Source of the DNA: Candidatus Marinacidobacterium sp.
GTDB lineage: Bacteria; Acidobacteriota; Vicinamibacteria; Marinacidobacterales; Marinacidobacteraceae
Length of the DNA stretch: 64,000 bases
Direction: 5' to 3'
NCBI GenBank assembly: GCA_965204755.1
Contig: OZ242011.1
Location: forward strand, 2,496,001 to 2,560,000
Numbering within the stretch: the stretch's first letter is position 1; each line of letters opens with the position of its first letter. This document shows, in pieces, positions 1 to 64,000 of the stretch. The notes below the pieces were generated by a model. That model saw only the letters and a list, made by a program, of their open reading frames with translations. It did no database searches and was not told where the DNA came from. Made by a program: the position numbers and the translations under genes.

Positions 1-709
1 CCTCGACACCGTCCGCCGGCTCAAGGAGATGCTCGAGCGGCGGGGTCGCTCCTCGGTGGATGTGGTGGCCGGGAACATCGCCACCGCCGCCGCCGCCCGG
101 GACCTGATCGAGGCCGGCGCCGACGGCGTGAAAGTGGGGATGGGCCCCGGCTCGATCTGCACCACCCGCGTGGTCGCCGGCACCGGGATGCCGCAATTCA
201 CGGCCATCCGGAATGCCCGCGAGACCACCGCCGGCGCGGACGCGCCCCTGATCGCCGACGGCGGCATCCGGTTCAGCGGCGACATCGTGAAGGCCGTCGC
301 CGCCGGCGCGGACAGCGTGATGATCGGCAACCTCCTCGCCGGCGCCGACGAGAGCCCGGGCGAGACCATCCTCTACCAAGGGCGCGCCTTCAAGAGTTAC
401 CGCGGGATGGGCTCGCTCGGAGCGATGAGCGGCCACACCGCCGACCGCTACCAGCAGGCCGGCCGCGAGCGCTCCGGCCTGGTCCCGGAGGGGATCGAGG
501 GGCGCGTCCCCACCAAGGGGCCGCTCGCCGGCGTGGTGCAGCAACTCATCGGGGGGCTCCGCTCCGGGATGGGCTACGCCGGATGCCGCAGCGTCCCCGA
601 ACTCCAGCAGCGGGCCGAATTCGTACGGGTGACCGGCGCCGGCCAGCGGGAGGGCCACGCCCACGATGTGGTCGTCACCAAGGAAGCCCCGAACTACCGG
701 CTGGAGTAG
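1..709 (+). CDS. guaB: IMP dehydrogenase, 3' part (5' end outside window)
   Basis: Motifs [20 protein letters not shown] (catalytic Cys), [35 protein letters not shown]; frame is open back to the window edge. Confidence 0.97.
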
Positions 710-1814
710 CCGCGCGGCGCCGCGGCGCTCCTTCCGGCCCGCGCTGCCCGCCGCCGGCGCCCTCGCGGTCCTCTGCGCTGCGGTTTCGCCGGGCTGCCGG
801 GCCGCCGGCCAGGCCCCGCTGATCACGGTCTATGTCCCGGACATCGCGGTCTCGCTGCCGCTCCCCCAGGGCTGGACATCCGCCTCGGACCAGCAGGGCG
901 GCTTCCGCATGACCACCTTCACCGGCCCTTCGGTGGATGTGCCGGACCGGGACGGCATCCAGGTGCAGGTCATGGCCGGCCCGGCGCCCGAGGGCTCCTC
1001 GCTCCGGGAAGTGGCCGACCGGTTCTACATCGGGGGCCAGACGGTGCTCTCCGAGCGGCCCTTCCGCTTCGGCGAAGAGGAGGGCCGGGTCTGGACCTTC
1101 GAGTTCGAGCGCCGGCCGCAGGCCGGCCGGCTGCTGCTCCTCGAGTCCGGCGGCCTCCTCTACGGGGTCTTCACCACCGGCGAGTCCCGAAGCGTCCTCG
1201 CCTACGGGCCGACCCTCGACCGGATGTACGCCGGCTTCGCCCTCGAATCCGCCGGCCATTTCGAGACCTATTCCGATCCGGTGTTCGACCTGGAGGTCCG
1301 CCACCCCCGCAGTTGGACCCGGTCCCATGTGCTCCGGGAAGCGGATTCCACGCTGTTCGTCGGCTTCCGCAGCCCGCCGCTCGCCGTGGAGGCGGCCGGG
1401 GCGACGGTGCACGCCACGCTCGAAGTGACGGTGCGCGCCGCCGAACCGGGGGCGACGCTCGAGACCTTCTACTCCGAGTCGGTGGCCGCGCTCGGCGACA
1501 ATTACCGGATGCTCCGGCACGATGTCCTGGACGAGGGCCGCGGCATCGCCGTGCTCTACTCGGTGGAGACCCAACTCGCCGACTACCTCGAGTGGGTGAT
1601 CTACAACTTCGTGGACGGGCGCGCCTACCTCTACCGCTTCCACTGCCTCAACCGGTTGTACCGGGCCATCCAGCCCTGGCTCGGCGAGATCGCCGCCGGC
1701 TTCCGGCGAGGCGGCGCCCCTCCCGCGGAGACCCTTCCCCTCCCGGACGAGCCGGAGGAGACCTTCCCGTCCGGCGGCGCCCCGGCGGCGGCCGCTCCCG
1801 GCGCCCGATCATGA
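666..1814 (+). CDS. Exported or lipoprotein with two PsbP/DcrB-like repeats; start uncertain
   Basis: Hydrophobic segment ending SPGC; two repeats with LPLPQGW and VRHPRSW motifs; ATGA overlap with the next gene. Confidence 0.65.
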
Positions 1815-4216: not shown

Positions 4217-4299
4217 TCCCGGAACCGGCGCCGGGTGTCGTCGGACGCCGCCGCTCTCCGCTCCCGCCGGGAACGCGGCTTGCATCGTTCGGAGGCGCC

Positions 4300-6342: not shown

Positions 6343-6383
6343 CCCTCCGGGGGCAGCGGGTCCGGTCACCGGGCAGCGTCGAG

Positions 6384-8288: not shown

Positions 8289-8335
8289 CTCCTGCCGGCG
8301 GAGACCTTCGAGCGCGTCCCTCCCGGGAATTGCCG

Positions 8336-15499: not shown

Positions 15500-16273
15500 G
15501 TGCTCGCCGTGCGGCCGCCGAGCAAGATCCTGTGCGTCCACCTCAACTACCGCAGCCGCGTCGAAGAGTTCGGCGCCCGGCTGCCGGCCGCGCCGACCTA
15601 CTTCATGAAGCCGCCCAGCGCGCTCCTCGGCGACGGTGAGCCGGTGGTGCGCCCCCCGGGTTGCCGCTACCTCAATTTCGAGGGGGAGATCGTGGCCGTG
15701 ATCGGGCCGCCGGACGGGGCGCCGCCCCCGGGCTGGCGCTGCCGGAACATCGAGCCGGAGGACGCCGGGCGCTTCATCCACGGTTACACGGTCGGCAACG
15801 ACTTCGGCCTCCACGACTTCCGGGACACCGACGCCGGCTCGATGCTCCGCGTGAAAGGCGCCGACACCCTCTGTCCCGTTCTCGACGCCGCCGGCGCCCC
15901 CTGGGATTTCCGCGGCCGGACGATCCGTACTTCGGTGAACGGCGAAGTCCGCCAATCCGGCTCCACGGACGAGATGCGCTGGGACCCCCACTACCTGGTG
16001 GCCGATCTCTCCCGCACCCACACCCTGCTCCCCGGCGACTTGGTGTTCACGGGAACCCCCGCCGGCTCCCGCCCGGTCGAGCCCGGCGACGAAGTGGTCG
16101 TGGAGGTGGAGGGCCTCGGTCGCCTCCGCAACCCGGTCGTCGAGACCGGGCCGCCCCTCCCGTCCGGCTACGGCGCCCAGCCCACCGACTCCGAGGAAGT
16201 GCGTTCCACCGCCTTCGGCGGCGACTGGGAATTCCGCGGCGCGCGGCCCCCGCGGAAGGACTCCGCCCGATGA
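15500..16273 (+). CDS. Fumarylacetoacetate hydrolase family protein
   Basis: SKILCVHLNY, FMKPPS, FEGEI, KGADTLCP, LLPGDLVFTGTP; GTG start. Confidence 0.92.
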   Translation: MLAVRPPSKILCVHLNYRSRVEEFGARLPAAPTYFMKPPSALLGDGEPVVRPPGCRYLNFEGEIVAVIGPPDGAPPPGWRCRNIEPEDAGRFIHGYTVGNDFGLHDFRDTDAGSMLRVKGADTLCPVLDAAGAPWDFRGRTIRTSVNGEVRQSGSTDEMRWDPHYLVADLSRTHTLLPGDLVFTGTPAGSRPVEPGDEVVVEVEGLGRLRNPVVETGPPLPSGYGAQPTDSEEVRSTAFGGDWEFRGARPPRKDSAR

Positions 16274-17064
16274 GCGCGAACGCCGCCCGCCCCCGGATCG
16301 GCCTCACCTCCTGGAAGCGCCCGGTGAAGACCCAGGTCGGCGACCCGGAGCAACTCTTCACCCTCGCCGAGGAGTATGTGGACGCCGTCCGGCGCGCCGG
16401 CGGCCTCCCGGTGATCCTGCCCCCGGCGCCGCTGGCCGCCGCCGCCGAAGCGATGGCCATGCTCGACGGCCTGATCCTGACCGGAGGCGGCGACATCGCC
16501 CCTGCCGCTTACGCGGCCCGGGACGAAGGCGTCAGCCTCGATGTGGACCCGGCCGAGGACGCCTGGGACATCGCCCTGGTCGCCGCCGCCCGGGACGCCG
16601 GGAAACCCTTCTTCGGCATCTGCCGAGGAATGCAGGTCCTGAATGTGGCCTTGGGGGGCACGCTCCGGCAGGACATCTGCGGCACCGAGACCCACCCGCC
16701 GATCTCCGAGGTCCCCGCCGAGGCGGTGGGTTTCCGCCACCCGGTCGCGATCTACCCCGGCACCCGCCTGCACCGCTTGCTAGACGCCTCCGAACTCTCG
16801 GTGAACAGCATCCACCACCAGGCGGTGGCGCAGCTCGGCGACGGACTGCGCCCCGCCGCCGAAGCCCCGGACGGCACCGTGGAGGCCCTGGAGTACGACG
16901 ACTCCCGAAACGGCGCTTCGTGGTCGGCGCTCGCCGTCCAGTGGCACCCGGAACGCCTCCCCGAAGGCCCCGACCAACGCCTCTTCGACGACCTCCTCGA
17001 ACGCGCGGCCCGCGCGTCCGTGGCTCGCGGCATCGGCATGGCGCTGCCGGGAGCCACGCCATAG
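16270..17064 (+). CDS. Gamma-glutamyl-gamma-aminobutyrate hydrolase family (peptidase C26, PuuD-like)
   Basis: GLILTGGGD, GICRGMQVLNVALGG, VNSIHHQAV, VQWHPE; ATGA overlap with the upstream gene. Confidence 0.92.
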   Translation: MSANAARPRIGLTSWKRPVKTQVGDPEQLFTLAEEYVDAVRRAGGLPVILPPAPLAAAAEAMAMLDGLILTGGGDIAPAAYAARDEGVSLDVDPAEDAWDIALVAAARDAGKPFFGICRGMQVLNVALGGTLRQDICGTETHPPISEVPAEAVGFRHPVAIYPGTRLHRLLDASELSVNSIHHQAVAQLGDGLRPAAEAPDGTVEALEYDDSRNGASWSALAVQWHPERLPEGPDQRLFDDLLERAARASVARGIGMALPGATP

Positions 17065-17075
17065 ACTTGGCTGGG

Positions 17076-17871: not shown

Positions 17872-18291
17872 TCAGTCCTCGTCGGGGACCAGGCGGCCCG
17901 CCGTATGCGCCGCGAGGCGCGCGGATTCCCGGGCGCGGTCGGCGTCCGGTTTCGCGTAGTAGTCCGAGGGCGTGAGGTCGTCGCCGCCGTAGAAGGCGAG
18001 TTCCCGGTCCTTGCGGAGTTCGCGGGACGCCTCCATGAGTCGGGCCAGGGTTTCGCTGTCGAGACCCGGCGGGAGTCGTTCCCGGTGTTCGGCGAGCACC
18101 GGGGATACATCGTGGACCCGCGGCGGCGCGATTCCAGCCGCGTAGAGGAGCCCCTTCAGCGCGAGTTCGACGACCTCCTGCGACTCCCGGACGACATCGG
18201 CCCAACTCCCGGCTTCGTGGAGCGCGTCCAACGCCGCGAGGCGCGCGAGCGCCCGGCGCCGGTGGTCGGCGGCGAGCGCCCGGTTGCGCAC
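17872..18291 (-). CDS. HEPN domain protein (toxin of an MNT-HEPN pair)
   Basis: SQEVVELALKGLL, PRVHDV, RELAFYG; directly downstream of the nucleotidyltransferase. Confidence 0.88.
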   Translation of the reverse strand: MRNRALAADHRRRALARLAALDALHEAGSWADVVRESQEVVELALKGLLYAAGIAPPRVHDVSPVLAEHRERLPPGLDSETLARLMEASRELRKDRELAFYGGDDLTPSDYYAKPDADRARESARLAAHTAGRLVPDED

Positions 18292-18292
18292 C

Positions 18293-18877
18293 TCAGCCGG
18301 CGACCCAGTACGGCTGTCCGTGCGCGGTCCGCCGCCTCCACCGCCCCTCCGCCGCCGCCCGCCGCACGGCGGTCAGCGCCTCGGACACCCGCCCGTTGCG
18401 CTCGAAGACGACGACGCCCTCCAACGCCGCCTCCCCCCAGAGGACGCTCGGCGAGTCCTCGGCGGGGAGGTGGACGAAGTGCGGATCCACTTCCGGGCCC
18501 CGGGCGGCCCGCCCGACCGCGGCGTCCCAGCGCCGGCGCAGGCCGCGCGTGATCGGCGTCGCGTCTTCGACCGCGAACAGCACATCGAGGTCGGAGTCGG
18601 CGCGCGCGTCGCCCCGGACCCGGGACCCGAACAGCACGACGCCCACCAGCGCCTCGGCCAGGACCTCTTCTCCCCGGGCCGGGAGGTCGGCCGGCGCTTC
18701 GGCGAAGGCCCGGCCGGCGGCCCCGAGCGCCAAGCGCCGCGCGCAGTACTCGTTGAAGGACAGCCCCGCCTCCCGGGCTTCGGCATCGAGTCGCCGGTGC
18801 AGCCCCGGCGGGGCGCGCAGCAGGAATCGTCCCGACTTGGCGGCCGGCGCTTCCGGCGCGGTCTCCGACATTCCCAT
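18293..18877 (-). CDS. HicB-like RHH domain fused to a minimal nucleotidyltransferase (MNT antitoxin)
   Basis: SGRFLLRAPPGLHRRLDAEAREAGLSFNEY followed by LFGSRVRGDARADSDLDVL (GSx10DxD). Confidence 0.87.
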   Translation of the reverse strand: MGMSETAPEAPAAKSGRFLLRAPPGLHRRLDAEAREAGLSFNEYCARRLALGAAGRAFAEAPADLPARGEEVLAEALVGVVLFGSRVRGDARADSDLDVLFAVEDATPITRGLRRRWDAAVGRAARGPEVDPHFVHLPAEDSPSVLWGEAALEGVVVFERNGRVSEALTAVRRAAAEGRWRRRTAHGQPYWVAG

Positions 18878-18878
18878 A

Positions 18879-18910
18879 GCGATATCAATACGAAGTGAAA
18901 ATGATATCAC
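18879..18910 (-). promoter_or_regulatory. Paired TGATATC(A/G) operator sites upstream of RHH-MNT-HEPN
   Basis: GATATC palindromes at 18881-18886 and 18903-18908, 22 bp apart, in an AT-rich patch just before the start codon. Confidence 0.55.
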
Positions 18911-20199
18911 CCGCCGCGCGGCGAGCGCCCGGGGATCGCGCGGCGCTCCTCGTCCTCGCGTCGGCTTCCCGGCGCCCGCGGGGCACCGCCCGCCCGCGCC
19001 CGGGCGCCCGGCGTGGCCGGCGCCGGAGAGTCGGAGCGGGAGACCGCGGCGGCGAGTTCGCGGAGGCCGATGGCCTCGACGCCCGGCGAGAGGGGAAACC
19101 GGGCGTCGCCCGGATACACGAGGAACGCCCGTTCCGGGGAGAGGTCGGCGGCGGCGGAGCGGAACCCGCGCGACAGCCGCGGCGCCGCTCCGCGCTTCAC
19201 CTCGATCGCCCAGGGCCGCGGCCGCCCCGGCAGTTCCAGCACCAGGTCGCATTCGGCGCCGTGCGAGGTCCGGTAGAACGATGCCGCGGTTCCCCTCGGC
19301 GCGGCCGCGATCAGGTTCTCGATCACGAAACCTTCCCAACTGCCGCCCACGACCGGGTGCCCGAGCAGCGCCGGGTACTCGCCGATCCCCAGGAGCGCGT
19401 GCGCCAGGCCGCTGTCGCGGATATAGACCTTCGGACTCTTGACCAACCGCTTCCCGAGGTTGGCGGCGCAGGGCGGCAGCCGCCGCACGAAGAGCAGGTC
19501 CACGAGGAGGCCGAGGTAGCGGTTCACGGTGCGGGTGTCCATGCCGAGGCCCGCCGCGATCGCGGCGCCGCTCCAGAGCCCGCCCTGCCGGTGCGCCAGC
19601 ATCGTCCAGAGCCGGCGCATCTTCTCGTGGGCGACGAAGACGCCGAACTGCGGCAGGTCGCGCGCGAGGATCGAGGTGAGAAAGTCCTCCCGCCACTCGA
19701 GGCTTGTGGGGTCGTCCTTCGCGAGGAAACTCTCCGGCAGGCCCCCGCGCAGCCAGAGGACTCGCTCGGCTTCCCCGTCCCGGGCCGCTTCGAGCACATC
19801 GAACGGCCCCAGTTCCAGCGGGGCGAGGCGGCCGGCCAGACTCCGGGTCTGGCGGAGCAGCGAGGCCGAGGCGGACCCGAGCAGCAGGTAGCGTCCGGTT
19901 CGCCGCCCGCTCCGCCGCCCCCGGTCTATGGCGCCGCGGAGTTCACCGAAGATCTCCGGCGCCTGGCGCACCTCGTCGAGCACGACCAGCCGATCCCGGT
20001 GGAAGTCGAGGAACTCCTGGGGCTCGGCGACCTGCGCCCGGTCGCGGGCGTTTTCCAGGTCGAGATAGACGGAGTCGCGCGCCGCCGAGATCGCCAGGGC
20101 GAGCGTGGTCTTGCCGGTCTGGCGGAGGCCGACCAGTCCTACGGCCGGCTGCCGCGAGAGAGCCGCCTCGACCGCGGAGGCGAGCCGACGAGAAATCAT
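18907..20199 (-). CDS. AAA_14 ATPase with DUF4143 domain
   Basis: GLRQTGKTT, VVLDEV, LLLGSAS, SLAGR, WLRGGLP, KRLVKSPKVYIRDSGL, ECDLVLE, AIEVK. Confidence 0.93.
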   Translation of the reverse strand: MISRRLASAVEAALSRQPAVGLVGLRQTGKTTLALAISAARDSVYLDLENARDRAQVAEPQEFLDFHRDRLVVLDEVRQAPEIFGELRGAIDRGRRSGRRTGRYLLLGSASASLLRQTRSLAGRLAPLELGPFDVLEAARDGEAERVLWLRGGLPESFLAKDDPTSLEWREDFLTSILARDLPQFGVFVAHEKMRRLWTMLAHRQGGLWSGAAIAAGLGMDTRTVNRYLGLLVDLLFVRRLPPCAANLGKRLVKSPKVYIRDSGLAHALLGIGEYPALLGHPVVGGSWEGFVIENLIAAAPRGTAASFYRTSHGAECDLVLELPGRPRPWAIEVKRGAAPRLSRGFRSAAADLSPERAFLVYPGDARFPLSPGVEAIGLRELAAAVSRSDSPAPATPGARARAGGAPRAPGSRREDEERRAIPGRSPRGG

Positions 20200-28732: not shown

Positions 28733-29215
28733 ATGGCCCTGCCCAAGATCCACATGGAGATCATCCGCGAGTACCAGCGGAAGGTGCCGGTCGCGGTGGA
28801 CGAGATCGCGAAGGAACTCGGGCTGAAGTCGTACTGGGGGATCTGGGACAACGGCGCGTCCGGCCGCATCGCCAAGGACCGGAAGAAGGGCGGGAAGAGC
28901 GGTTACGCCCTCATCGTCAACCGGGACCACTCGCCGGAGCGCCGGCGGTTCACCGTCGCCCACCAGATCGCCCACTTCCTCATGCACAAGAAGGAAATGG
29001 GCGACAGCCTTGTCGACGACTCGCTCTACCGGAGCAAACTGGGCGGCCCGTACGAAGTGGCGGCCAACGACTTCGCGGCCTGGCTCCTCATGCCCTGGAA
29101 CATGATCCTGCACGAAGTGGCCTGCGGCGCGGAGACCGTCGAGAAGTTGGCGAAGATCTTCCAAGTCTCCAACAGTTGCATGGCCGTTCGCCTCGGCTTC
29201 CCGTTCGAGGACTGA
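28733..29215 (+). CDS. ImmA/IrrE-family metallopeptidase-like protein, HQxxH variant (copy 1)
   Basis: RRRFTVAHQIAHFLMH, EVAANDFAAWLLMP. Confidence 0.85.
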   Translation: MALPKIHMEIIREYQRKVPVAVDEIAKELGLKSYWGIWDNGASGRIAKDRKKGGKSGYALIVNRDHSPERRRFTVAHQIAHFLMHKKEMGDSLVDDSLYRSKLGGPYEVAANDFAAWLLMPWNMILHEVACGAETVEKLAKIFQVSNSCMAVRLGFPFED

Positions 29216-29417: not shown

Positions 29418-29900
29418 ATGACCATGCCCAAGACCCACATGGAGATCATCCACGAGTACCAGCGGACGCTGCCGGTCGCGGTGGACGAGATCGCGAAGGA
29501 ACTCGGGCTGAAGTCGTACCGGGGGATCTGGGACAACGGCGCGTCCGGCCGCATCGCCAAGGACCGGAAGAAGGGCGGGAAGAGCGGGTACGCCCTCATC
29601 GTCAACCGGGACCACTCGCCGGAGCGCCGGCGGTTCACCGTCGCCCACCAGATCGCCCACTTCCTCATGCACCAGAAGGAAATGGGCGACAGCCTCGTCG
29701 ACGACTCGCTCTACCGGAGCAAACTCGGCGGCCGGTACGAAGGCGAGGCGAACGACTTCGCGGCCTGGCTCCTCATGCCCTGGAACATGATCCTGCACGA
29801 GGTGGCCTGCGGCGCGGAGACCGTCGAGAAGTTGGCGAAGATCTTCCAGGTCTCCAACAGTTGCATGGCCGTCCGCCTCGGCTTCCCCTTCGAGGACTGA
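29418..29900 (+). CDS. ImmA/IrrE-family metallopeptidase-like protein, HQxxH variant (copy 2)
   Basis: Same length as copy 1 with about 11 of 160 residues different. Confidence 0.85.
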   Translation: MTMPKTHMEIIHEYQRTLPVAVDEIAKELGLKSYRGIWDNGASGRIAKDRKKGGKSGYALIVNRDHSPERRRFTVAHQIAHFLMHQKEMGDSLVDDSLYRSKLGGRYEGEANDFAAWLLMPWNMILHEVACGAETVEKLAKIFQVSNSCMAVRLGFPFED

Positions 29901-38094: not shown

Positions 38095-40827
38095 ATGATG
38101 CAGATCACAAGGAAGTCGAGTCCGCTGCGCGGGCTGACTGTCCTTCTCGCCCTGATGCTGGGCGCCGGCCTCGTGCTGTCCGGGTGCGGTGACGACGACT
38201 CCACCACTACGACTCCGGCGCCGGCGCCGGCTCCTCCGGCGCCGCCGGCCCAGCCGGATCCGGTCAGCGTTCCCGGCGGTCTCACGGTCTCCGCCACCGG
38301 CGAGGACTTCATCGAGTTCAGTTGGGAAGCGGTCGAAGGCGCCTCCGGCTACGACATCCAGATGAGCATGACCGAGGGCGACTTCAGTTCGTCCATGATG
38401 GCCACCGTCACCGCGACGATGCACCGGTTCACGGTCTCGCCGTCCACGACGGCGTACGCGCGGGTGCGGGCCAACATGGACGGTCGCGAGAGTGACTGGA
38501 GCGGCGCGGTGATGGGGATGAGCATGGCCGCTTCGCTCACCCTCGGCACGCCGATGCCGGAGGTTTCCAGCACCGGCCCGGACCACATCGAGTGGACTTG
38601 GGATGCGGTTGCGGACGCCGCCGCCTACCAGGTTCGGGTCGCCGCCAGCGCGGACGGACTGGACATGGCGACCGCCGAGATCACCACCGCCACCAGTTAC
38701 CGGGTCACCGCCGCGGCGGAGACCACGATGTACATCAGCGTTCGCGCCGCGGCCGGGACGCCTACCTCCCCGGTCGTCGGCGACTGGAGCGATGCGGTGG
38801 CGGGGACGAGCGATGTGGCGCCCCTGCCGTTCGTGGTCAGCATGACTCCGCCCGAAGCGGGAGCGGACAAGGATTGCAGCGGCCAGGCCTTCTGCCCGGA
38901 TGACGGGACGGATCCGGAGAAGGCCCGAGCCTCCGTGAACACCAAGATGATGGTCGTGTCCTCGCACACTGCCCAAGTGTCGCCGGTGTTCCTCGAAGAC
39001 GCCGGCGCGGTCGCCTTGAGCGACGGCGAGAACACGCCGTTCGCCAATGTGAACTGGAGCGCCCTGCAGTCGGTGGTTGCTAACGAGGGCGTGACCTTCA
39101 TGTTCCAGCGCGTCGCCGCCGCCGCCGGGCAGGAACCGGCCGCGATGGGAGACGCGATGTACATCACCTGCGGCCCCTTCCGTTGCTCCGAGGCGATGGA
39201 TGAGGCCCCGTCCGCTCCGGAGATTTCCATCTCGGACTCCGCCGCCTGCAACGAGTTCGAATTGGATCTGAAACTGGACATCGGCCTCGGCTACAACGGA
39301 CGCAACGCCGACGATACGGCAGACGCCGCAGGCGCCTTGTACGATCGGAATGTCGGCATAGATGCGGGCTGGGTGTACACCTCGTCGGCCACCGCGACCG
39401 TCGTTCACGAGTTCGAAGGTGTCCCCGGTCCCACCGGAGGGAACCTGAAGGTCAAGGGGGCGGACATCAGCAAGACTTCCAGGCCGACGGCGCTCGTCAT
39501 GGCCCGAGGAACCGGGGACAAGAAAAAGGCGGTCAACTACTTCGGTGGAGCGAGCCAGGGGACCGAGTTGACCTCGACAGAGGCCGGGCCGGTCTGGAAC
39601 GGTATGGACGGCGGTGACTGTCTCGGGACAAATATCGCCACGTCCAACACTACTTCCTCGTATGGCTACAACAACATCGGCGGAACCGCCGGTGAGCGCC
39701 GCACCCTGCAGCGCCCGCAGGAGTGTTTCCGGATCATCACCGGCGGTCGCGACACCCCTGGCGCCGCCACGACGATTCGTCGGAACTACCTTCCCGGATA
39801 CAAGATCCATGTGTCTCCCAACGCCAGCGTGACCTGGGCCGGGAGCGCGGTCGCCTGGGAGAAGGGAACGGATCCCTTCGACGGCTACGACTGCGAACCG
39901 CACACCATTTCCGCAGCCGAAGAAGTGGACGACCAGTTGGGTTCCCTCTGCGAGAGTTACCAGGAACAGGTGCGTGGCTGGTGGGGCAACGGGCTCGCCA
40001 AGAGCAATGGATCGTTCACCTTCGAGTATGTGGTGACCAGCGCCTACGCCGCCGACGGCACTCGGACGGTGGATGCCCCGACTTTCCCTGTCGACAGTCG
40101 GACTGCCGCGACCGAGGTGGGTGCCGGCAAGAAGTTCGTCCGGATCAATGTCGTTGCGAAGTCGCCTACTTGGAATGAAGACTTCGCCACCACCGCCGCG
40201 GGAGACGAGACGGAAGTCCACAAGGCCAAGGACAGCAGGTGGACGAGCCTCTGGCTCGTGGACTCCACGGCAGTGGATGCCGGTGATACCCCCAGGTCGC
40301 GCGACGGCACGGCTCCGGACGCCGACATGTACCGCGTGCTCACCGGCGACGGCAGTCTGCGGGGCGCCTATGTCGGCGCCTATCCGACCTCCGGGGATGA
40401 CGACCGGTCCATCCGCTCCCACAGCGGCACCATCGTCGCCCCGCGGGCGGTGTTCACGGTGGATCTGCTGGACGACGACGGCGACCCGATGTACGGCGAC
40501 TTCGGCAAGGTGGACTTCCAGCACCTCGCACGCAGCACGAACGAGGAGAGGGGCAAGGCTGACAACTACCCGTCCACGAACCCGGATGCCTATGCGTGCT
40601 CCGACGACGACGGCACGCGGTGCGATTCCGAGCAGGAGTTCGAGGGGACCATCACCTTCACCCTGTATCCCGACACGAACGACTGCACCGAAGAGATCGA
40701 TGTCGCGTTCACCTGCACCTGGGACGCCGACGGTGACGAGGATCGCACCGGCGACGCCAGCGGCGCTACCGCGGGAACCTTCGGCATGACGAATATCGGT
40801 AACTTCGTCAAGTGCGAGGCCAGTTGA
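38095..40827 (+). CDS. FN3 lipoprotein with Cys-rich C-terminal region (paralog 2)
   Basis: AGGAGGT RBS, lipobox LSGC, two FN3 domains, colinear with paralog 1 down to the terminal CEAS. Confidence 0.88.
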   Translation: MMQITRKSSPLRGLTVLLALMLGAGLVLSGCGDDDSTTTTPAPAPAPPAPPAQPDPVSVPGGLTVSATGEDFIEFSWEAVEGASGYDIQMSMTEGDFSSSMMATVTATMHRFTVSPSTTAYARVRANMDGRESDWSGAVMGMSMAASLTLGTPMPEVSSTGPDHIEWTWDAVADAAAYQVRVAASADGLDMATAEITTATSYRVTAAAETTMYISVRAAAGTPTSPVVGDWSDAVAGTSDVAPLPFVVSMTPPEAGADKDCSGQAFCPDDGTDPEKARASVNTKMMVVSSHTAQVSPVFLEDAGAVALSDGENTPFANVNWSALQSVVANEGVTFMFQRVAAAAGQEPAAMGDAMYITCGPFRCSEAMDEAPSAPEISISDSAACNEFELDLKLDIGLGYNGRNADDTADAAGALYDRNVGIDAGWVYTSSATATVVHEFEGVPGPTGGNLKVKGADISKTSRPTALVMARGTGDKKKAVNYFGGASQGTELTSTEAGPVWNGMDGGDCLGTNIATSNTTSSYGYNNIGGTAGERRTLQRPQECFRIITGGRDTPGAATTIRRNYLPGYKIHVSPNASVTWAGSAVAWEKGTDPFDGYDCEPHTISAAEEVDDQLGSLCESYQEQVRGWWGNGLAKSNGSFTFEYVVTSAYAADGTRTVDAPTFPVDSRTAATEVGAGKKFVRINVVAKSPTWNEDFATTAAGDETEVHKAKDSRWTSLWLVDSTAVDAGDTPRSRDGTAPDADMYRVLTGDGSLRGAYVGAYPTSGDDDRSIRSHSGTIVAPRAVFTVDLLDDDGDPMYGDFGKVDFQHLARSTNEERGKADNYPSTNPDAYACSDDDGTRCDSEQEFEGTITFTLYPDTNDCTEEIDVAFTCTWDADGDEDRTGDASGATAGTFGMTNIGNFVKCEAS

Positions 40828-48619: not shown

Positions 48620-51714
<3,095 letters not shown>

Positions 51715-51718
<4 letters not shown>

Positions 51719-54491: not shown

Positions 54492-54593
54492 GGCCGCGCC
54501 GTTCGGCGCGCGAACGGCGCGAAGAAGGTGCGGCGGCGCTTCGAGATGGCGGGCAGCCTCTTCGGGGAGGTATTCGGTGCTCAGTCAGGTTGA
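54492..54593 (+). pseudogene. Start-less 3' remnant of a lost upstream gene (DUF262-like C-terminus)
   Basis: ANGAKKVRRRFEMAGSLFGEVFGAQSG* overlaps the next start and supplies its GGAGG; family assignment from recall. Confidence 0.45.
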
Positions 54594-55722
54594 GTTGCGG
54601 CTCTTCAAGTGCTTCGAGCACTTGCTGCTTCCGCTTGCCCCACTGACGCTGCTCACGGGCGCCAACGCGTCGGGCAAGTCGTCGGTTCTGCAGAGCCTCG
54701 TTCTGCTGCACCAGACCATTCGGGAAAACGAGAGGGCTTCGCGACTGGCGCTCAACGGCGCCGGAGTTCGCCTCGGGCGGGCGCCCGACATCGTGAACGA
54801 TGCGTCGGGGCGCGACCGATTCACCCTGGGACTGACGGACGGAGACGAACGAGTCGAGTGGACATTCGCCGGGGATCGCCACGAGAGGTCCATGGCCGTC
54901 GAATCCCTGAGCATCCGCGGTGAGCCGGTCGAGCCAGTTCCGGAACTTCGATACCTGCTTCCGGAGGACGAGTCCGCCCTGGGGCGCTTGGCCGGGCGCC
55001 TAAGAGGCCTGACCTATCTCACGGCGGCGCGGGCTGCGCCGCAGGGGACCTATGCCCTCGCCGATCCGCACTCGTCGGGTCTCGTAGGAGCGCAGGGGGA
55101 GTACGCGCCCGGCGTGCTGCACCGGAAGCGGGAGGAGCGAGTGGCGGGGGCGCTGGCGCTACCGGAGGGCCCGGAGGCGCTGTTTCCGCAAGTGGAAGAG
55201 CGAATGCGGACACTGTTTCCGGGTTTTCGGTTGGCTCTGGAGGAAGTTCCCGGAACGAGCGCGGTTTCGGTGGGGCTGCGGACATCGGAGGACACGGACT
55301 TCCACCGACCCGCGCACACGGGCTTCGGCCTCACGCGGTGTTTCCCGATCGTCGTGGCGGCGCTGGCAGCGGCAGACGGAGACCTTCTCCTGATCGAGAA
55401 TCCGGAACTGCACCTGCATCCTGCGGGACAGGCGCGGATGGGGCGGTTTCTCGCGGAGGTGGCGGCCGCCGGACGGCAGGTTCTTCTCGAGACCCACAGC
55501 GACCATGTGCTCAACGGCGTCCGGCGAGCGGTCAAGGATGGAAGGCTCGACGCGGAGGATGTCGCCGCGCACTTCTTCCGGCCCCGGTCGGAGGATCGTC
55601 CGCAGGTCGCGAGTCCGGCTCTCGACCGCGACGGGCGGATAGATCATTGGCCGCCGGGATTCTTCGACCAGTTCGACCGGGACGCCGGTTACCTCGCCGG
55701 GTGGAGCGACGGCGGCGCCTGA
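54577..55722 (+). CDS. ABC/AAA_21-type ATPase with DUF3696
   Basis: FKCF, TGANASGKSS, GFGL, IENPELHLHP, ETHSDH, WPPGFFDQ. Confidence 0.92.
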   Translation: MLSQVELRLFKCFEHLLLPLAPLTLLTGANASGKSSVLQSLVLLHQTIRENERASRLALNGAGVRLGRAPDIVNDASGRDRFTLGLTDGDERVEWTFAGDRHERSMAVESLSIRGEPVEPVPELRYLLPEDESALGRLAGRLRGLTYLTAARAAPQGTYALADPHSSGLVGAQGEYAPGVLHRKREERVAGALALPEGPEALFPQVEERMRTLFPGFRLALEEVPGTSAVSVGLRTSEDTDFHRPAHTGFGLTRCFPIVVAALAAADGDLLLIENPELHLHPAGQARMGRFLAEVAAAGRQVLLETHSDHVLNGVRRAVKDGRLDAEDVAAHFFRPRSEDRPQVASPALDRDGRIDHWPPGFFDQFDRDAGYLAGWSDGGA

Positions 55723-55723
55723 C

Positions 55724-55768
55724 TTGGAACTCGTCTTCAACGAACTCTCCCCGCGCGGCCAGTTCTGA
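55724..55768 (+). pseudogene. 14-codon 5' stub of a truncated downstream gene
   Basis: TTG 1 nt after the ATPase stop: MELVFNELSPRGQF*. Confidence 0.4.
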
Positions 55769-55778
55769 GGGGTCTTCG

Positions 55779-57035
55779 GTGAACCATCCGACCAGCCTGA
55801 CCTTGGACGAGGTGCGTTGCTTCAGCGGCGCCCGGACCGGACCGATCGGACGGATAACGGTTCTGATCGGGGACAACGGTACGGGCAAGTCCACCTTCCT
55901 CGGTTGTTACCGAGCCTTCGCCGAGTTGACCGGTTTCGATGACCTGCGAGACCGCAACTACTTCGACGCCGATCCGTTTCGGATGGGGAGGTTTCCCGAC
56001 ATCGCCCGCGACGGGGCCGGGGAGTTCGCCGTGGCGGGGGCTTTCGGCGGTCGCTGCCATGAGAGCGTGCGTATCGCGTTCGGTGACGGGGGCCGGGAGT
56101 ATCCGGAGGAACGCTCGATCTCGATCCGGCCGGCGAATGCGCCCCACCCGTTTCGCATCGAGAGGATTTGCGAAAGCCGGGAAGCGTGGAGGCTGGAGGG
56201 GCCCGGCTTTCGGTTCGAACTCGATGCCGCGGATGTGGACTGGCGGCAGATGACCACCTGGCTGTCTCTCCAGGTCCGCCACGGGCAGTTGCCGTTCCGC
56301 GGCGAACTCACGGAGTTGCGGAAACGGATACCGGGTATTTCCGCCGATCGACAAAACGCGTTCGCCGCGTTGGCCAACTATCTCGCGGGCCTGCCGTTCC
56401 CGAGGGAGTCAGCGCGCGTCGTCCCGCTCCAACCCGGTCCCGCCGAACGGCGCCGGCGCTACACGACGCTTCCGTACGCCGTGGACGATGGAGTCCTCGC
56501 CGAGCGCGTGGCAGCCATCGGCAGGGAGGTCGGCCTGTTCTCGCAGGTCGGGAGTTCCCCGCCGGGCCCCGACGGCGCGAGGGAAATCCGCGTCCGGACG
56601 CCGGACGGATGGCGGAACCTCATGGACGCGGGATACGGGGTCCATTCGGTCTTGGCTCTGCTCTTCGCCATCTGCGGACATGGCGATGACACGGCCTTCC
56701 TGCTGCAACAGCCGGAGGCCCGCATCCATCCGGGTGCGCAGGCGGCTCTCGCTACGGTCATGGCCTCGAGTCGCCAGCGTTTCCTGATCGAGACGCACAG
56801 CGACCACTTCGTGGACCGGTTCCGCATCTGCGTGATGGAGGGTGACCTGGAGCCCGAGGACTTGCAGATCCTCTATTTCGAGAAGGCGCAGGATGGCCGG
56901 GGTTCGACGATCCACGGGATCGGCGTGGATCGAAACGGCAACCTGGAGGGCGAGCCCCGCGAGTTTCGGAGGTTCTTCCTGGAGGAGATGGAGCGTCTCC
57001 TCGGCTTCGGTCGGTTGGAGCGCGAAATGGCCTGA
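55779..57035 (+). CDS. Second ABC/AAA_21-type ATPase (DUF3696-like)
   Basis: VRCF, GDNGTGKST, GYGV, LLQQPEARIHP, ETHSDH. Confidence 0.88.
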   Translation: MNHPTSLTLDEVRCFSGARTGPIGRITVLIGDNGTGKSTFLGCYRAFAELTGFDDLRDRNYFDADPFRMGRFPDIARDGAGEFAVAGAFGGRCHESVRIAFGDGGREYPEERSISIRPANAPHPFRIERICESREAWRLEGPGFRFELDAADVDWRQMTTWLSLQVRHGQLPFRGELTELRKRIPGISADRQNAFAALANYLAGLPFPRESARVVPLQPGPAERRRRYTTLPYAVDDGVLAERVAAIGREVGLFSQVGSSPPGPDGAREIRVRTPDGWRNLMDAGYGVHSVLALLFAICGHGDDTAFLLQQPEARIHPGAQAALATVMASSRQRFLIETHSDHFVDRFRICVMEGDLEPEDLQILYFEKAQDGRGSTIHGIGVDRNGNLEGEPREFRRFFLEEMERLLGFGRLEREMA

Positions 57036-57053
57036 CCGGCGGCGGGGCGGCGG

Positions 57054-58250
57054 TCAGGACTTCGGGGGGCGGGTTCCGCCGTTTGCTCGGTAGGCCTCGA
57101 TGGCGAAGTAGAGGGCGTAGAGGAGGTTGGGGAAGCGGTAGCGGCCGCGGGCCTCCGGATCGGCTACGAGGGCCTCGAGTTTTCGCATGCGGCGGAGGAA
57201 GTTGTCGAGCACTCGCCGTTCGTGGGTCGTCAACCTCGGGATCAGTTCCGCCCGACGAAACTCGAACCGGGGTTCGTCGGAAATCTTCCGCAGGATGGAT
57301 CGGTACCTCTCGCTGCGGATCGCTTGGAAGACTTGGGGTTCGAGGAGTTTCGAGCCGACGACATCGGCCGCCAGAGTGATCCCGAGAGAAATGTCCCGAG
57401 CGGTGATCGTCGGGCCTGCCGCCGATCGCCACACGGCATCGCCGATCTCGTGGGCGAGCACCGGCAGCCCGCCGGAGAAATCCACGAGGGGTTTCAGGCC
57501 CCGGTCCTCGACCTGTGCGTCTCCGGCGGCGAACGACTTCCGGAAGAACTCAAGCGTTTCCGCCGGAGACCACGGTGCGATTTCGATCAGGTCGAAGACA
57601 CGGGCGAGCGAGGGCTGTTCCCGGATCATGCGTTGGCGGCGCTCTTCGATGCCCACGAGCAGGAGGCACAGGCGGGAGTCGTCGTAGGCGATGGCGAGTT
57701 CCTCCAGCGAACTCTTCAGCCAATTGGCGAATTCCCACGATTCGGCCAAGCCGTTGATGTCGTCGAGGATCAGCACGAGGGACTTCCGTTCGGGCTGGAG
57801 GCCCTGGACGATCTTGTGGACTCCTGGGACGAAGCGGTCGCGAAGGTCCGCCATTTCCGCCGGCCGAAGGGCGAGTTGGACGCCGAACATCCCGGCGGAC
57901 TGCACGCGTTCCCCGAAGATTTCCGCGATTTTCTGGAACCAGGGCCGCGTAGCGTTCTGTTCCACGAGGTGTTCCCAAGTGCGGGCGACCATGCGATTGA
58001 GGTCGGCGGCGCCTCCGAGCGGCACATAGCATCCGGCGACTTCGTCCAGGCTTTCGACGGCCTGCCGGGCGATCCGGGCCACGGTGCTCTTGCCCATCCC
58101 TCGCTCGCCGGTCACGAACCCGGCCACTACCTGTCCCTTGGCGCTCGCGCGCGCCAAGCCGCGAATCCGCTCGATGGCGTTCTCCCTGCCGACGATCGCC
58201 TCGGTCAGGGGGAAGCGACCCGGGCGGAACGGAGACGAGTCGGGGTTCAC
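57054..58250 (-). CDS. AAA_16/STAND-like ATPase with C-terminal winged helix
   Basis: SPFRPG, VGRE, GERGMGKST, LILDDING, SGGLP. Confidence 0.88.
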   Translation of the reverse strand: MNPDSSPFRPGRFPLTEAIVGRENAIERIRGLARASAKGQVVAGFVTGERGMGKSTVARIARQAVESLDEVAGCYVPLGGAADLNRMVARTWEHLVEQNATRPWFQKIAEIFGERVQSAGMFGVQLALRPAEMADLRDRFVPGVHKIVQGLQPERKSLVLILDDINGLAESWEFANWLKSSLEELAIAYDDSRLCLLLVGIEERRQRMIREQPSLARVFDLIEIAPWSPAETLEFFRKSFAAGDAQVEDRGLKPLVDFSGGLPVLAHEIGDAVWRSAAGPTITARDISLGITLAADVVGSKLLEPQVFQAIRSERYRSILRKISDEPRFEFRRAELIPRLTTHERRVLDNFLRRMRKLEALVADPEARGRYRFPNLLYALYFAIEAYRANGGTRPPKS

Positions 58251-61299: not shown

Positions 61300-62495
61300 G
61301 CGGCGAGGCGGCGGCGCCTCCGGTGCGGCGGGTGCGGCGCGAGGACTGGCCGGAGGGGCGGGAGGTGGTGCTGGTGGGGACGGCGCACATCTCGCCGGAC
61401 TCGGTGCGGCTGGTGCGGGAGACCATCGAGCGGGAAAAGCCCGACGGGGTGTGCGTGGAACTCGACCGGGGGCGGTTCGAGGCGCTCATGGACCCGGCGC
61501 GGATCGAGCGGCTCGACCTGAAGCAGGCGGTGCGGGAGCGGAAACTGCTTCCGCTGATCGCCGGGGTCGCGCTCGGGGCCTGGCAGGCGCGGATGGGGCT
61601 GCGGTTCGGGGTGGAGCCGGGGGCGGAACTGCGGGAGGCGGCGCTCGCCGCCCGGGAAGCGGGGATCCCGGTGCACCTGGTGGATCGGGAGGTGCGGGTG
61701 ACCCTGCTCCGGGTCTGGCGGCGCGCCGGGTTCTTCCAGAAGATGCGGCTGCTGGCCGGGGGGCTGGAGAGCGGCGGGGGGGCGGAGGCCGCGCTGGAGA
61801 CCGAGGAGGACCTGAAGCGGCTGGTCTCCGCCGATGTAGTGTCGCGGCTGGTCGCGGAACTGGGGGAGGCGTTCCCGACGCTGAAGTCGGTGGTGATGGA
61901 CGAGCGGGACGCCTGGATCGCGGACGCGGTGCGGGAGACCGGGGGCGGGCGGCTGGTGGCGGTGGTCGGGGCCGGGCACCTCGACGGGGTGGAGCGGCGG
62001 CTGCTGGGGGACGAGCCGGTGGACCGGGCGGAGTTGGCGGAAGTCCCGCCGCGCGGGCGGCTGGCGCGGTGGATCGGGGTGGCGATCCCGCTGGTGATCC
62101 TCTCCGCGCTCGGCTGGACCTGGGTGACCCGGGGGGCGGCGGCGGCGTCGGAGGGGGCGCTGTTCTGGGTGGCGGTGAACTCGATCCCGGCGGGGCTCGG
62201 GGCGGCGGCGGCGCTGGCCCACCCGCTGACGGTGCTGGCGGCGCTGGTCTCCGCGCCGTTCACCAGCCTCACGCCGGTGCTGGGGGCGGGGTATGTGACC
62301 GGGTTCGTCCAGGCCTGGGTGCGCCCGCCGCGGGTGTTCGAGTTGCGCGCGCTGCGGGAGGAGGCGCTGGCGCCGCGCAAGTGGTTCACCAACCGGGCGC
62401 TGCGGATCGCGCTGGCGTTCCTCCTGCCCACCATCGGGAGCGCCGTCGGCACCTTCGTGGGCGGCTCGCGGCTGATCGGGGGGGCGCTGGGCTGA
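61296..62495 (+). CDS. TraB/GumN (TraB pheromone-shutdown type) protein
   Basis: LVGTAHIS, VCVELD, PGAE, DERD, VVGAGHLDG, C-terminal TM segments; GTGA overlap. Confidence 0.92.
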   Translation: MSGEAAAPPVRRVRREDWPEGREVVLVGTAHISPDSVRLVRETIEREKPDGVCVELDRGRFEALMDPARIERLDLKQAVRERKLLPLIAGVALGAWQARMGLRFGVEPGAELREAALAAREAGIPVHLVDREVRVTLLRVWRRAGFFQKMRLLAGGLESGGGAEAALETEEDLKRLVSADVVSRLVAELGEAFPTLKSVVMDERDAWIADAVRETGGGRLVAVVGAGHLDGVERRLLGDEPVDRAELAEVPPRGRLARWIGVAIPLVILSALGWTWVTRGAAAASEGALFWVAVNSIPAGLGAAAALAHPLTVLAALVSAPFTSLTPVLGAGYVTGFVQAWVRPPRVFELRALREEALAPRKWFTNRALRIALAFLLPTIGSAVGTFVGGSRLIGGALG

Positions 62496-62527
62496 ACGGG
62501 GTAGGGGCTGGGGCATTCAACGGAGGT

Positions 62528-62624
62528 GTTGACAACGGTTTTGTTGACAACAAGTTAGTTGACAACCATCGGGTTGACAACGGAGGTGTTGACAACTAAT
62601 ATGCTGACAACAAATCCGTTGAAC
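62528..62624. repeat. Array of the 9-bp palindrome GTTGACAAC with 6-nt variable spacers (15-bp period)
   Basis: Exact copies at 62528, 62543, 62558, 62573, 62588; GCTGACAAC at 62603; GTTGAAC at 62618. Confidence 0.95.
62574..62602 (+). promoter_or_regulatory. Sigma70-type promoter embedded in the array
   Basis: TTGACA (62574-62579), 17 nt, TAATAT (62597-62602); GGGAGG RBS before ATG 62636. Confidence 0.65.
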
Positions 62625-62635
62625 GGGAGGTCCCC

Positions 62636-63868
62636 ATGGAATCCAGAACGGGCAGTTGGGTAACCGGCGACGACTTTTTTGGGCGCGAGACGAACCTCAG
62701 GATCTTGGGGATGAAGGTTCGAGAGCAGAACCATGTGCTGCTCAGCGGCCCGCGACGCATTGGGAAGACGAGCGTCGCTCAAGAACTCGGTCGGCGCCTC
62801 GCCGAGGAGGGCTGGACTTTCCTGTACCTCGATGTGGAGCACGTCGGCACTCCGGAGGAGTTCGTTCTGGAGTTTGCCGCTCGGATGTGGGAGGCGCGTC
62901 CGCTCTGGAAACGCCGTCTGTTTGGAATCGGGCGATGGGTCGGCGCACAGGCGGGAAGAGTCAAAAAGGTGGGCGCCGCCGGAACCGCAGTCGAGTTGCA
63001 CCGCGAAATGGAGCGCGGGACATGGCGCCAGCGCGGGGACCGGCTGTTCCGGCAGTGCGTCGAGTCGGGCCGCCGGGTCTTTTTGGTGTTGGACGAGTTG
63101 CCTCTCTTCTTGAAGCGCTTGCTGGAGAGTGAAGGGGGCAGGGGTTCCGTGGAGTTGTTCCTCAGTTGGCTTCGGGGGACACTCCAGATGATTGAGCGCA
63201 ACTCGCCGGTCCTGTTGATCAGCGGCAGCATGGGGCTGTATCCGTTCGTGGAGCGGCTTCGCCTCACCGACCGCATCAACTACCTGTCGCCCTATCGCTT
63301 GCAACCTTGGAGTCGAGAGGAGAGCATCGAGTGTCTTGACGCCTTGGCCGCGGCTCACGGGATTACTTGGGCGCAGGGCGCGGCGTCCGACGCGTATGAC
63401 AGACTCGGTGAAGGGAATCCCCATCAGATCCAGTGCTTCTTCGCTGCGCTCCGGCAGTACGTGCTCGGACAGGAAGACTCTCGGATCACTTGCGAGGACA
63501 ACGCGGCCGTCTATCCGCAACTCCTGCTGCCGGGCGGTCAGAACGACTTGGCCCACTACCAGCACCGTCTGGAACGATCGTTGGACGCCGAGGACTTTGC
63601 CATCGCGATGGAGATCTTGGTCGAGACCGCGAACAAAGGCGTCTTGGGGAGATCGAGGCTCATGGCTTTGGTCGCCGGCCGGGACGGGCGCGAAGTGGAC
63701 GTGACGGAGCGCGTCCGCAGCGTTCTGGACATGTTGATGCACGACGGCTATTTGAGTCAGGATGAGGAGTACTGCCTTCGTTTCACTTCTCGGCTGCTGC
63801 AGGACTGGTTCTCCACGAGACCGGCTGGCCAGCGAGACCGCGACGCTTCGCGAGGTTCGACCCGATGA
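62636..63868 (+). CDS. STAND-like/archaeal-type P-loop ATPase
   Basis: DFFGRE, GPRRIGKTS, LVLDELP, ISGSMGL, C-terminal LMHDGYL...LLQDW winged helix. Confidence 0.9.
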   Translation: MESRTGSWVTGDDFFGRETNLRILGMKVREQNHVLLSGPRRIGKTSVAQELGRRLAEEGWTFLYLDVEHVGTPEEFVLEFAARMWEARPLWKRRLFGIGRWVGAQAGRVKKVGAAGTAVELHREMERGTWRQRGDRLFRQCVESGRRVFLVLDELPLFLKRLLESEGGRGSVELFLSWLRGTLQMIERNSPVLLISGSMGLYPFVERLRLTDRINYLSPYRLQPWSREESIECLDALAAAHGITWAQGAASDAYDRLGEGNPHQIQCFFAALRQYVLGQEDSRITCEDNAAVYPQLLLPGGQNDLAHYQHRLERSLDAEDFAIAMEILVETANKGVLGRSRLMALVAGRDGREVDVTERVRSVLDMLMHDGYLSQDEEYCLRFTSRLLQDWFSTRPAGQRDRDASRGSTR

Positions 63869-64000
63869 GCGAACCAATGGGTCGTGTCGTTCGGAAATTC
63901 AACCCGGGGACGCTCCAGAGTGACGAACATATCGTCGAGCAGTTCGTCGTTCGTCGCGTGGAGTTGCGACTCATCATGGAGACGCTTCGCAGCAACATCG
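63865..64000 (+). CDS. 5' end of a coupled second gene, probably another STAND-like ATPase (runs off window)
   Basis: ATGA overlap; MSEPMGRVVRKFNPGTLQSDEHIVEQFVVRRVEL; open to the edge; Walker A not yet reached. Confidence 0.65.
   Translation, partial: MSEPMGRVVRKFNPGTLQSDEHIVEQFVVRRVELRLIMETLRSNI

Follow-up and report, generated by a model that had tools for sequence, protein, structure and literature searches.

Near-total avoidance of the tetramers ACGT and AGCT in a Candidatus Marinacidobacterium chromosome, and candidate methyltransferase genes

Avoidance of restriction sites, short palindromes in particular, was reportedly described in prokaryotic genomes by Gelfand and Koonin in 1997 and by Rocha and colleagues in 2001. 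AluI recognizes AGCT and is C5-methylating, and MaeII and HpyCH4IV recognize ACGT. Both words are nearly absent from the 64-kb stretch of Candidatus Marinacidobacterium sp. DNA analyzed here (G000:C1:2496001-2560000, 71.7% GC; hereafter the window, with G000 standing for the genome) and from the chromosome to which it belongs. The likeness to AluI and to MaeII/HpyCH4IV is one of target word; as AluI is C5-methylating, so the methyltransferase that tracks AGCT avoidance in G000 (methyltransferase C, below) is of the C5 type. Searches of Pfam, NCBIfam and PADLOC returned no family named for AluI or MaeII/HpyCH4IV.

Passages of Rusinov et al. (2015, PMC4687349) attribute avoidance to orthodox Type II systems, state that it becomes stronger the longer a system has been resident and can outlast the system, and give an observed/expected ratio (O/E) of 0.78 as the usual threshold. 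The G000 chromosome resembles known host restriction-site avoidance in that short palindromes are under-represented relative to Markov expectation and in that the effect is lineage-specific. It departs from the usual cases in its O/E of 0.02-0.04 and in the avoidance of two 4-bp words at once, and from orthodox Type II avoidance in that no cognate endonuclease was recognized beside its methyltransferases. According to passages of Poirot et al. (2019, bioRxiv 10.1101/712018), AGCT has been eliminated from A-clade pandoraviruses, and restriction was tested as the cause and rejected. The pandoraviruses as described there are like G000 in that AGCT was purged from a GC-rich, megabase genome by undirected substitutions, a likeness that extends to ACGT-like control words being normal in related genomes. 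However, pandoraviruses are eukaryotic viruses, whereas G000 is a bacterium rich in methyltransferases from which ACGT was purged too. A literature search of titles and abstracts returned no description of joint ACGT and AGCT avoidance in a bacterium. G000 is an instance, at extreme strength, of the already known avoidance of restriction sites, and it does not define a new biological category. Its novelty lies in how strong the avoidance is, in the joint loss of two 4-mers and in the few candidate genes that it offers for testing, among them an uncharacterized, methyltransferase-linked operon type that contains a GHKL gene and is present twice.

Depletion of ACGT and AGCT and its encoding

The window contains four ACGT (positions 39640, 62841, 63459, and 63699) and one AGCT (position 16832), against maximal-order Markov expectations of 104.7 and 106.6, respectively. 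All of 100 dinucleotide-preserving shuffles of the window exceeded the observed counts, with 180 ± 13 ACGT and 131 ± 11 AGCT. A preliminary description of the window had claimed near-total avoidance of both words, and the effect is stronger than it claimed. Each site that it listed lies where it was placed, but a fourth ACGT, at 39640 and outside the last ATPase gene, had been missed; O/E was nowhere near 1 for either word, and this was the only overlooked site. As that description also stated, other palindromes remained common, with ordinary observed and Markov-expected counts for GATC (376/388), TCGA (473/379), GTAC (110/149), and TGCA (94/66). CTAG was scarce in the window as well (5/38), but it is scarce in all relatives.

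The same depletion extends over the single contig of the G000 genome (3,975,858 bases, 71.7% GC), where 265 ACGT were found and 7147 expected (O/E 0.037) and 332 AGCT were found and 7446 expected (O/E 0.045). These are the two lowest O/E values among the 256 tetramers, and the remaining 4-bp palindromes of like composition occur at normal frequency. Protein-coding genes were defined with a simple, self-trained codon-usage caller, which misses atypical genes and extends some starts too far; it called 2816 genes that cover 87.8% of the genome. When synonymous codons were shuffled 20 times within these genes, 8028 ± 60 AGCT and 6430 ± 40 ACGT were expected, compared with 116 and 154 observed (O/E 0.014 and 0.024), and 2614 of the 2816 genes are free of both words. 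Tetramer counts against Markov and codon-shuffled expectations, by gene and genome-wide, thus agree with the proposal made from the window.

The preliminary description ascribed the avoidance to codon-pair choice, and the codon shares bear this out. The C-ending codons GAC, AAC, CAC, and TAC, which hold shares of 86-94% elsewhere, fall to 1.4-1.7% before Val (GTN). The shares of GAG, CAG, and AAG collapse likewise before CTN (0.6-1.7%, compared with 68-90% elsewhere), as do those of AGC (0.3 vs. 26.5%) and ACG (0.7 vs. 39.7%) before a codon that starts with T. TTG provides 29% of Leu codons after Glu, Gln, or Lys and 4.7% normally.

Loss of the two words was also detected between genes. Intergenic spacers of 300 bp or less, which total 166 kb, contain eight ACGT and 18 AGCT with 188 of each expected (O/E 0.04 and 0.10), which indicates that the purge acts on DNA and does not depend on translation. 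Whatever the flanking bases, each core word was depleted (O/E 0-0.11 across all its 10 flank classes), so that avoidance concerns the 4-mers as such rather than a few 6-mers. The purge of ACGT and AGCT therefore involves the whole chromosome, acts on DNA, is specific to 4-bp words and is achieved in genes through synonymous codon-pair choice.

Two giant genes of G000, at G000:C1:507401-539089 (~31.7 kb) and 3520212-3549614 (~29.4 kb), have three and four sites where ~150 and ~200 are expected.

Distribution among relatives and candidate genes

Relatives were compared by samples of 5-120 kb, by whole-genome 6-mer counts with GAGCTC, GACGTC, and CAGCTG as proxies, and by a quick one-gene tree. 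In the first samples, which covered 5-40 kb of each of 29 genomes (G001-G030 without G027), depletion of both words was seen only in G001, a member of the same genus (ACGT 5/48, AGCT 7/60). In the G005 sample, ACGT was depleted (10/57) but AGCT was not (133/145), and that of G007 gave a hint of ACGT depletion. Longer samples gave 9/122 ACGT and 14/162 AGCT for G001 (100 kb), 30/150 ACGT for G005 (100 kb) and 16/65 ACGT for G007 (45 kb).

Whole-genome counts gave the same grouping. The 28 family genomes split into G000 and G001, with 29 and 143 GAGCTC, respectively, and 26 genomes with 813-2444. GACGTC occurs 45, 72, 80, and 119 times in G000, G001, G005, and G007, respectively, and 836-1919 times in 23 others. 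The remaining genome, G006 of genus g6, has 139 GACGTC but normal ACGT (76/68 in 40 kb), a separate avoidance of a 6-bp, AatII-type word. Within the family, AGCT was therefore purged in two of 28 genomes, in this genus only, and ACGT in four (G000, G001, G005, and G007). In a class sample of 121 genomes, GACGTC fell below 150 only in these four and in G006, with at least 804 in the rest. Among 301 genomes sampled from the phylum, the GAGCTC:CTCGAG ratio was lowest in G000 (0.0135), followed by 0.069, 0.075, and 0.093. The class and phylum tallies include the unpublished genomes G027, G191, G063, and G088, on none of which an individual claim rests. Across the family, class and phylum samples, avoidance of the two words is confined to a few related genomes.

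The 16S identity to G000 is 98.8% for G001, 96.9% for G008, 96.1% for G005, and 95.5% for G004, and relatives at 95.5-96.9% include normal users of both words. Together with the pattern of sharing, these identities indicate that the purge arose within a compact group. In a quick GcvP tree, genus g1, to which G000 belongs, branched as the sister group of all other family members, with G005 and G007 near genus g2, so that the ACGT-avoiders need at least two changes, a weak conclusion given that the tree was a quick one built from one gene.

The hexamer CAGCTG is strongly avoided in most family genomes (for example 0/11, 0/10, and 0/11), with AGCT as such at normal frequency; at the sampled loci (L085-L120) this applied to G004, G006, G008, G009, G012, G013, and G014. 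G005 and G010 were normal for CAGCTG and AGCT, and in genus g1 the avoidance covers every AGCT.

A search of the genome for methyltransferases, as the preliminary description had proposed, gave six C5 and 26 N6_N4 matches in G000 and three and 33 in G001; the non-g1 genomes G005, G004, and G008 gave 1-3 and 8-12. The six C5 enzymes of G000, here called A to F, differ in their neighbors. Methyltransferase A adjoins an EcoRII-like enzyme, although CCWGG is not avoided (O/E 0.94). Methyltransferases B and E each adjoin Vsr and small unknown genes, C adjoins three unknown genes and F adjoins four. Methyltransferase D (locus G000:C1:2393071-2396051, L148) adjoins a GHKL-type restriction enzyme of the BbrUII/HgiDII family (NCBIfam E 1e-104). 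G000 avoids GTCGAC (O/E 0.20, 416/2076), GTCTAC (0.16), GTAGAC (0.21), and GTATAC (0.38), which together we take to be the AccI-type word GTMKAC; the avoidance suggests that the methyltransferase D system has AccI-like rather than SalI-like specificity. Avoidance of GTMKAC beside a recognizable restriction enzyme is an internal positive control.

The best-tracking candidate for ACGT is an orphan, beta-class methyltransferase of 414 amino acids with an SPPY motif (G000:1033879-1035120). At E <= 1e-40, its distribution over the 28 family genomes matched ACGT avoidance exactly, with detection in all four avoiders and in no other genome of the remaining 24. The protein is 80% identical to G000 in G001 and 59% in G007, the motif being kept in both, and it is a 107-residue remnant in G005. 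An SPPY motif, which also occurs in the SmaI-like methyltransferase of G000, presumably marks an N4-type and not a C5 enzyme. In genus g1, its neighbors are a beta-lactamase-like gene and then a GmrSD-family gene; in G005 and G007, it adjoins a P450 gene. In G292, which has a 44%-identical homolog, ACGT is found once with 33 expected in 30 kb, among many avoided palindromes. G292 belongs to the same phylum and has 38% GC; CTAG (2/29), GTAC (9/33), CGCG (18/66), and CATG (20/70) were among the 4-bp palindromes avoided at its loci L230-L235. An N6-type methyltransferase at L210 was rejected as an ACGT candidate since it occurs in 15 of 28 family genomes, including non-avoiders. Two loci of G000, G000:C1:1033879-1038674 (L211) and 2396103-2398637 (L148), each have an SPPY methyltransferase with a GmrSD-family (DUF262/DUF1524) enzyme next to it or nearby. 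The L211 copy has GC of 0.56-0.60, 39% identity between G000 and G001 and six residual sites.

Methyltransferase C (326 amino acids, G000:1262791-1263768) is the candidate for AGCT, linked to it by co-occurrence alone. At E <= 1e-40, it was found in both AGCT-avoiders and in none of the 26 other family genomes. The three genes 3' of it match PADLOC PDC-M33A, PDC-M33B, and PDC-M33C (E 5.3e-93, 2.5e-40, and 9.9e-23), and G001 has a 73%-identical, syntenic ortholog with all three PDC-M33 genes. The four-gene order (operon C) also occurs in G297 and G388. The best 120 homologs of methyltransferase C carried generic names only, from which no specificity could be read. The enzymes of G000 and G001 depart from their highly conserved protein family at a few near-invariant positions (T149S, K210R, L240Q/R, A307S, and the region 131-150), which would fit a change of specificity. 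The G297 and G388 genomes avoid CAGCTG only, with 213 and 116 copies compared with 5950 and 5090 of the reversed word. As an independent test this is uninformative because CAGCTG is avoided in much of the family without methyltransferase C, in G004 and many other members, and also in G436, which lacks any C5 methyltransferase. The L213 methyltransferase was discarded for AGCT since G007 and G015 have it too, in each case with an in-frame TGA.

The PDC-M33A protein (M33A) is, by its motifs and modeled fold, a GHKL ATPase. Its family comprises 2511 representative clusters at E <= 0.001 and has no Pfam family; Pfam matched one of 46 members, weakly. The invariant residues of the alignment are E41, N45, D48, T121, G123, and G148-x-x-G151-x-G153. 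The structural model (pLDDT, predicted local distance difference test, 82) gave 198 Foldseek matches at E <= 0.001, with Hsp90/TRAP1 and topoisomerase VI-B at the top (E ~2e-8). M33A thus has the motifs ExxxNxxD, DxGxG-like, and GxxGxG and the fold that define the GHKL (Bergerat-fold) group. Passages of Iyer, Abhiman & Aravind (2008, PMC2292703) place paraMORC (GHKL/MORC) ATPases in restriction-modification operons, and M33A resembles these in being a GHKL ATPase beside a DNA methyltransferase. The PDC-M33 operon is unlike the paraMORC operons in that M33A has no Pfam match and no helicase or recognizable nuclease was found among the PDC-M33 genes. M33B was modeled as an Ig-like sandwich with helices (pLDDT 87.7), and the structure search returned only generic Ig/fn3-like sandwiches (Z <= 7.9) and no recognizable nuclease; M33C is Pfam DUF6339. 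Profiles of M33A and M33B had no match among PDB sequences, and a literature search found no paper on PDC-M33 or DUF6339. Kinship of M33A with the BbrUII-type enzyme was considered and dropped, since the hhalign comparison gave one motif and nothing more.

A distant relative of operon C with the same build, operon F (G000:1516081-1521071), contains methyltransferase F, a C5 enzyme of 444 amino acids (G000:1519740-1521068) that is a second candidate for ACGT. Its 545-residue gene product is a distant M33A homolog (hhalign probability 98%) and a 240-residue product has a weak DUF6339 match, which together indicate a second system of the same build. Operon F recurs in G005, with a 72-74%-identical methyltransferase and other genes at 44-59% identity, and at the syntenic place G001 has a 42-43%-identical methyltransferase and a 24%-identical M33A-like gene.

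Cause of the depletion

Restriction is the most probable selective agent, and the genes named above, all of which lie outside the window, are candidates for a part in it. We infer that ACGT and AGCT are selected against chromosome-wide because they probably are, or recently were, the targets of restriction endonucleases resident in the lineage. The putative resident enzymes would have MaeII-type (ACGT) and AluI-type (AGCT) specificities, and each site may carry a very small fitness cost, for example if lagging methylation now and then exposes it to cleavage by the cell's own enzyme. Given a long residence and a large population, nearly all sites would be exchanged for synonymous or neutral alternatives, and sites that cannot change (rRNA) or have newly arrived (low-GC islands) would persist, presumably protected by methylation. 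The codon-pair shares give a ~580-fold shift in C:T odds in NAY/GTN pairs and a ~330-fold shift in G:A odds in NAR/CTN pairs. Expressed as scaled selection, the former is ln(580) = ~6.4, a tiny cost per site, so that selection would easily suffice over a long residence. The preliminary description had likewise proposed long-term selection against specific sites, which agrees with a depletion that is genome-wide and common to G001; restriction pressure is the best-fitting cause. On this footing, G000 is a very clean natural example of restriction-type pressure reshaping a chromosome, with ~14,000 sites rewritten and codon-pair usage distorted genome-wide. The footprint predicts restriction enzymes that hardly cut G000 DNA and points to a few methyltransferases and one uncharacterized, GHKL-containing defense candidate.

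Several observations weigh against resident restriction enzymes or against the genes proposed for them. Scans of the methyltransferase neighborhoods revealed no recognizable endonuclease beside the candidate ACGT and AGCT methyltransferases, and the SPPY enzyme is an orphan with no endonuclease visible in either of its genomic contexts. ACGT is normal in G112 (604 sites in 120 kb), which has a 66%-identical SPPY homolog, and in G188, which has an F-like operon; AGCT is normal in G297 and G388, which carry methyltransferase C (60-61% identical) and the full PDC-M33 operon. The GHKL gene of operon F in G000 (G000:C1:1516081-1517990, L150:3081-4990) is split by a frameshift near L150:3287-3320 (about G000:1516287-1516320) into an open reading frame of 92 codons, which has motif I, and one of 545; the G005 ortholog is an intact protein of 653 amino acids that aligns in two frames of G000. 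G007 avoids ACGT, yet no C5 methyltransferase was seen in its 86%-complete genome of 410 contigs. Several other N4/N6 methyltransferases common to G000 and G001 are possible for AGCT; these have DPPY or DPPF motifs, which we take to indicate N6-type enzymes. Finally, the associations between genes and avoidance rest on ~2-3 evolutionary events among related, non-independent genomes.

The lack of a visible endonuclease would also be expected if none were resident and the lineage were repeatedly exposed to mobile cutters, against which it defended itself by orphan, "vaccinating" methyltransferases and by loss of sites. The SPPY methyltransferase, an orphan in all four ACGT-avoiders and in two different contexts, fits this account. 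We nevertheless regard it as doubtful, since a protective methyltransferase should make site loss needless, and so complete a purge needs sustained pressure, for which a resident enzyme is the simpler source. An orphan methyltransferase with avoidance would also be left behind by a lost endonuclease, according to passages of Rusinov et al. (2015, PMC4687349). It is highly unlikely that the words are avoided for a reason other than cutting or methylation, such as a signaling role in transcription, replication, DNA uptake, or DNA structure. Close relatives (16S 95.5-96.9%) use both words at normal frequency, both are 4-bp palindromes, the typical form of a Type II restriction target, and the 30 sites kept in the rRNA operon show that the words are tolerated. 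Nothing specific favors such a signal, apart from the pandoravirus precedent, where AGCT elimination was not explicable by restriction in passages of Poirot et al. (2019, bioRxiv 10.1101/712018).

Decay driven by methylation, which the preliminary description had offered beside restriction, requires that methyltransferases C and F methylate the sites at C5 and that deamination of 5-methylcytosine erodes them, as at vertebrate CpG. Both enzymes track avoidance, and neither has a Vsr gene beside it, in contrast to B and E. The tetramers in greatest excess within genes are C-to-T products (ATGT 2.36, AGTT 1.92, and AACT 1.71), but these are the only synonymous escapes and their excess is forced; in short intergenic DNA there was no excess (O/E 0.86 for ATGT/ACAT and 0.79 for AGTT/AACT), a weak test as little is expected at equilibrium. 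We compared 62 G001 sites in 150 kb with orthologous positions of G000, where 18 were alignable and 15 differed; eight of the 15 changes were inner C>T or G>A, although seven were other substitutions. Two of three ACGT losses in rRNA were ACGT>ATGT. The hypermutability of 5-methylcytosine is 10-50-fold, which the ~580- and ~330-fold odds shifts far exceed. A site-specific rate rise of ~300-600-fold, with C>T at hundreds of times background, would be needed, so that deamination alone is unlikely and may be a contributor at most. The methyltransferase that best tracks ACGT is, moreover, of the N4 type by the motif rule assumed above. As the sole cause, methylation-driven decay is thus quite unlikely.

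If restriction by resident enzymes is the cause, the C5-methyltransferase/GHKL operons C (AGCT) and F (ACGT) might themselves be ATP-dependent restriction systems with 4-bp targets and unusual self-toxicity, a tentative proposal that we consider improbable. Were it true, high self-toxicity would explain why these words are purged 25-70-fold and GTMKAC 3-6-fold in the same genome, and the widespread, uncharacterized M33A family would gain a function and a readable genomic footprint.

Surviving sites and acquired DNA

Called genes account for 270 of the 597 surviving sites of the G000 genome and long uncalled stretches for 268, of which 199 lie in 114 kb with GC below 0.66; the rRNA operon has 30 and short spacers have 29. 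Survivors are clustered: of 398 bins of 10 kb, 51 contain 380 of them. Site count falls as GC rises (r = -0.44). In genes, O/E climbed ~10-20-fold from high to low GC at third codon positions (GC3): over five classes from GC3 above 0.92 to below 0.75, the values were 0.011, 0.014, 0.031, 0.071, and 0.22 for ACGT and 0.008, 0.005, 0.013, 0.076, and 0.081 for AGCT. The DNA of low GC and low GC3 that holds survivors is probably acquired, and the footprint can flag recently acquired DNA. As a clock, the site count is blind to donors that avoid the same words.

Nowhere in the genome are ACGT and AGCT more densely clustered than in the single rRNA operon (G000:C1:2266234-2271581). Ten of its sites are in the 16S gene and 18 in the 23S gene, nearly all at positions conserved in four relatives, and their retention indicates that the cell tolerates sites that cannot change. 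At two rRNA positions, G000 has even acquired an AGCT that most relatives lack.

Within the window, the AAA_16 ATPase gene on the forward strand at 62636-63868 (Pfam PF13191) has the lowest GC (0.62) and GC3 (0.77). Three of the window's ACGT (62841, 63459, and 63699) lie in it, compared with ~5-6 expected when its own synonymous codons are shuffled; by the same measure, it has no AGCT where ~4 are expected. No other gene of the window is so little purged; it is the sole one with more than one site and among the 16 of 2816 called genes with at least three. The preliminary description had proposed that avoidance dates accessory genes, with this cassette the least ameliorated. The proposal holds in that depletion weakens as GC3 falls and in that this gene is the least purged. 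It is weakened in that the gene lacks AGCT and in that the three ATPase genes at 54577-58250 (AAA_21/AAA_15 and AAA_16; Pfam), whose GC3 is 0.78-0.82, are fully purged. These have no site compared with 8.4 ACGT and 9.4 AGCT expected (~18 together), which makes the site count a rough clock at best.

The sole AGCT of the window (16832..16835) lies in a native-looking Peptidase_C26/GATase gene (16270-17064, GC3 0.90). The remaining ACGT (39640..39643) lies in a 910-residue gene without a Pfam family (38095-40827, GC3 0.84), which has this one site where ~12 are expected.

Other genes of the window include a HEPN gene that adjoins a HicB/nucleotidyltransferase fusion gene (17872-18877) and resembles, with it, a toxin-antitoxin-type pair; a DUF4143/AAA_14 ATPase gene (18907-20199) follows. 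Tandem genes for 160-residue, IrrE-like (Peptidase_M78) proteins at 28733-29215 and 29418-29900 have unusually low GC (0.64-0.65) but very high GC3. Glycine dehydrogenase is encoded by a single gene of 1032 codons (48620-51718) and is matched in G001 and G005 by two adjacent pieces.

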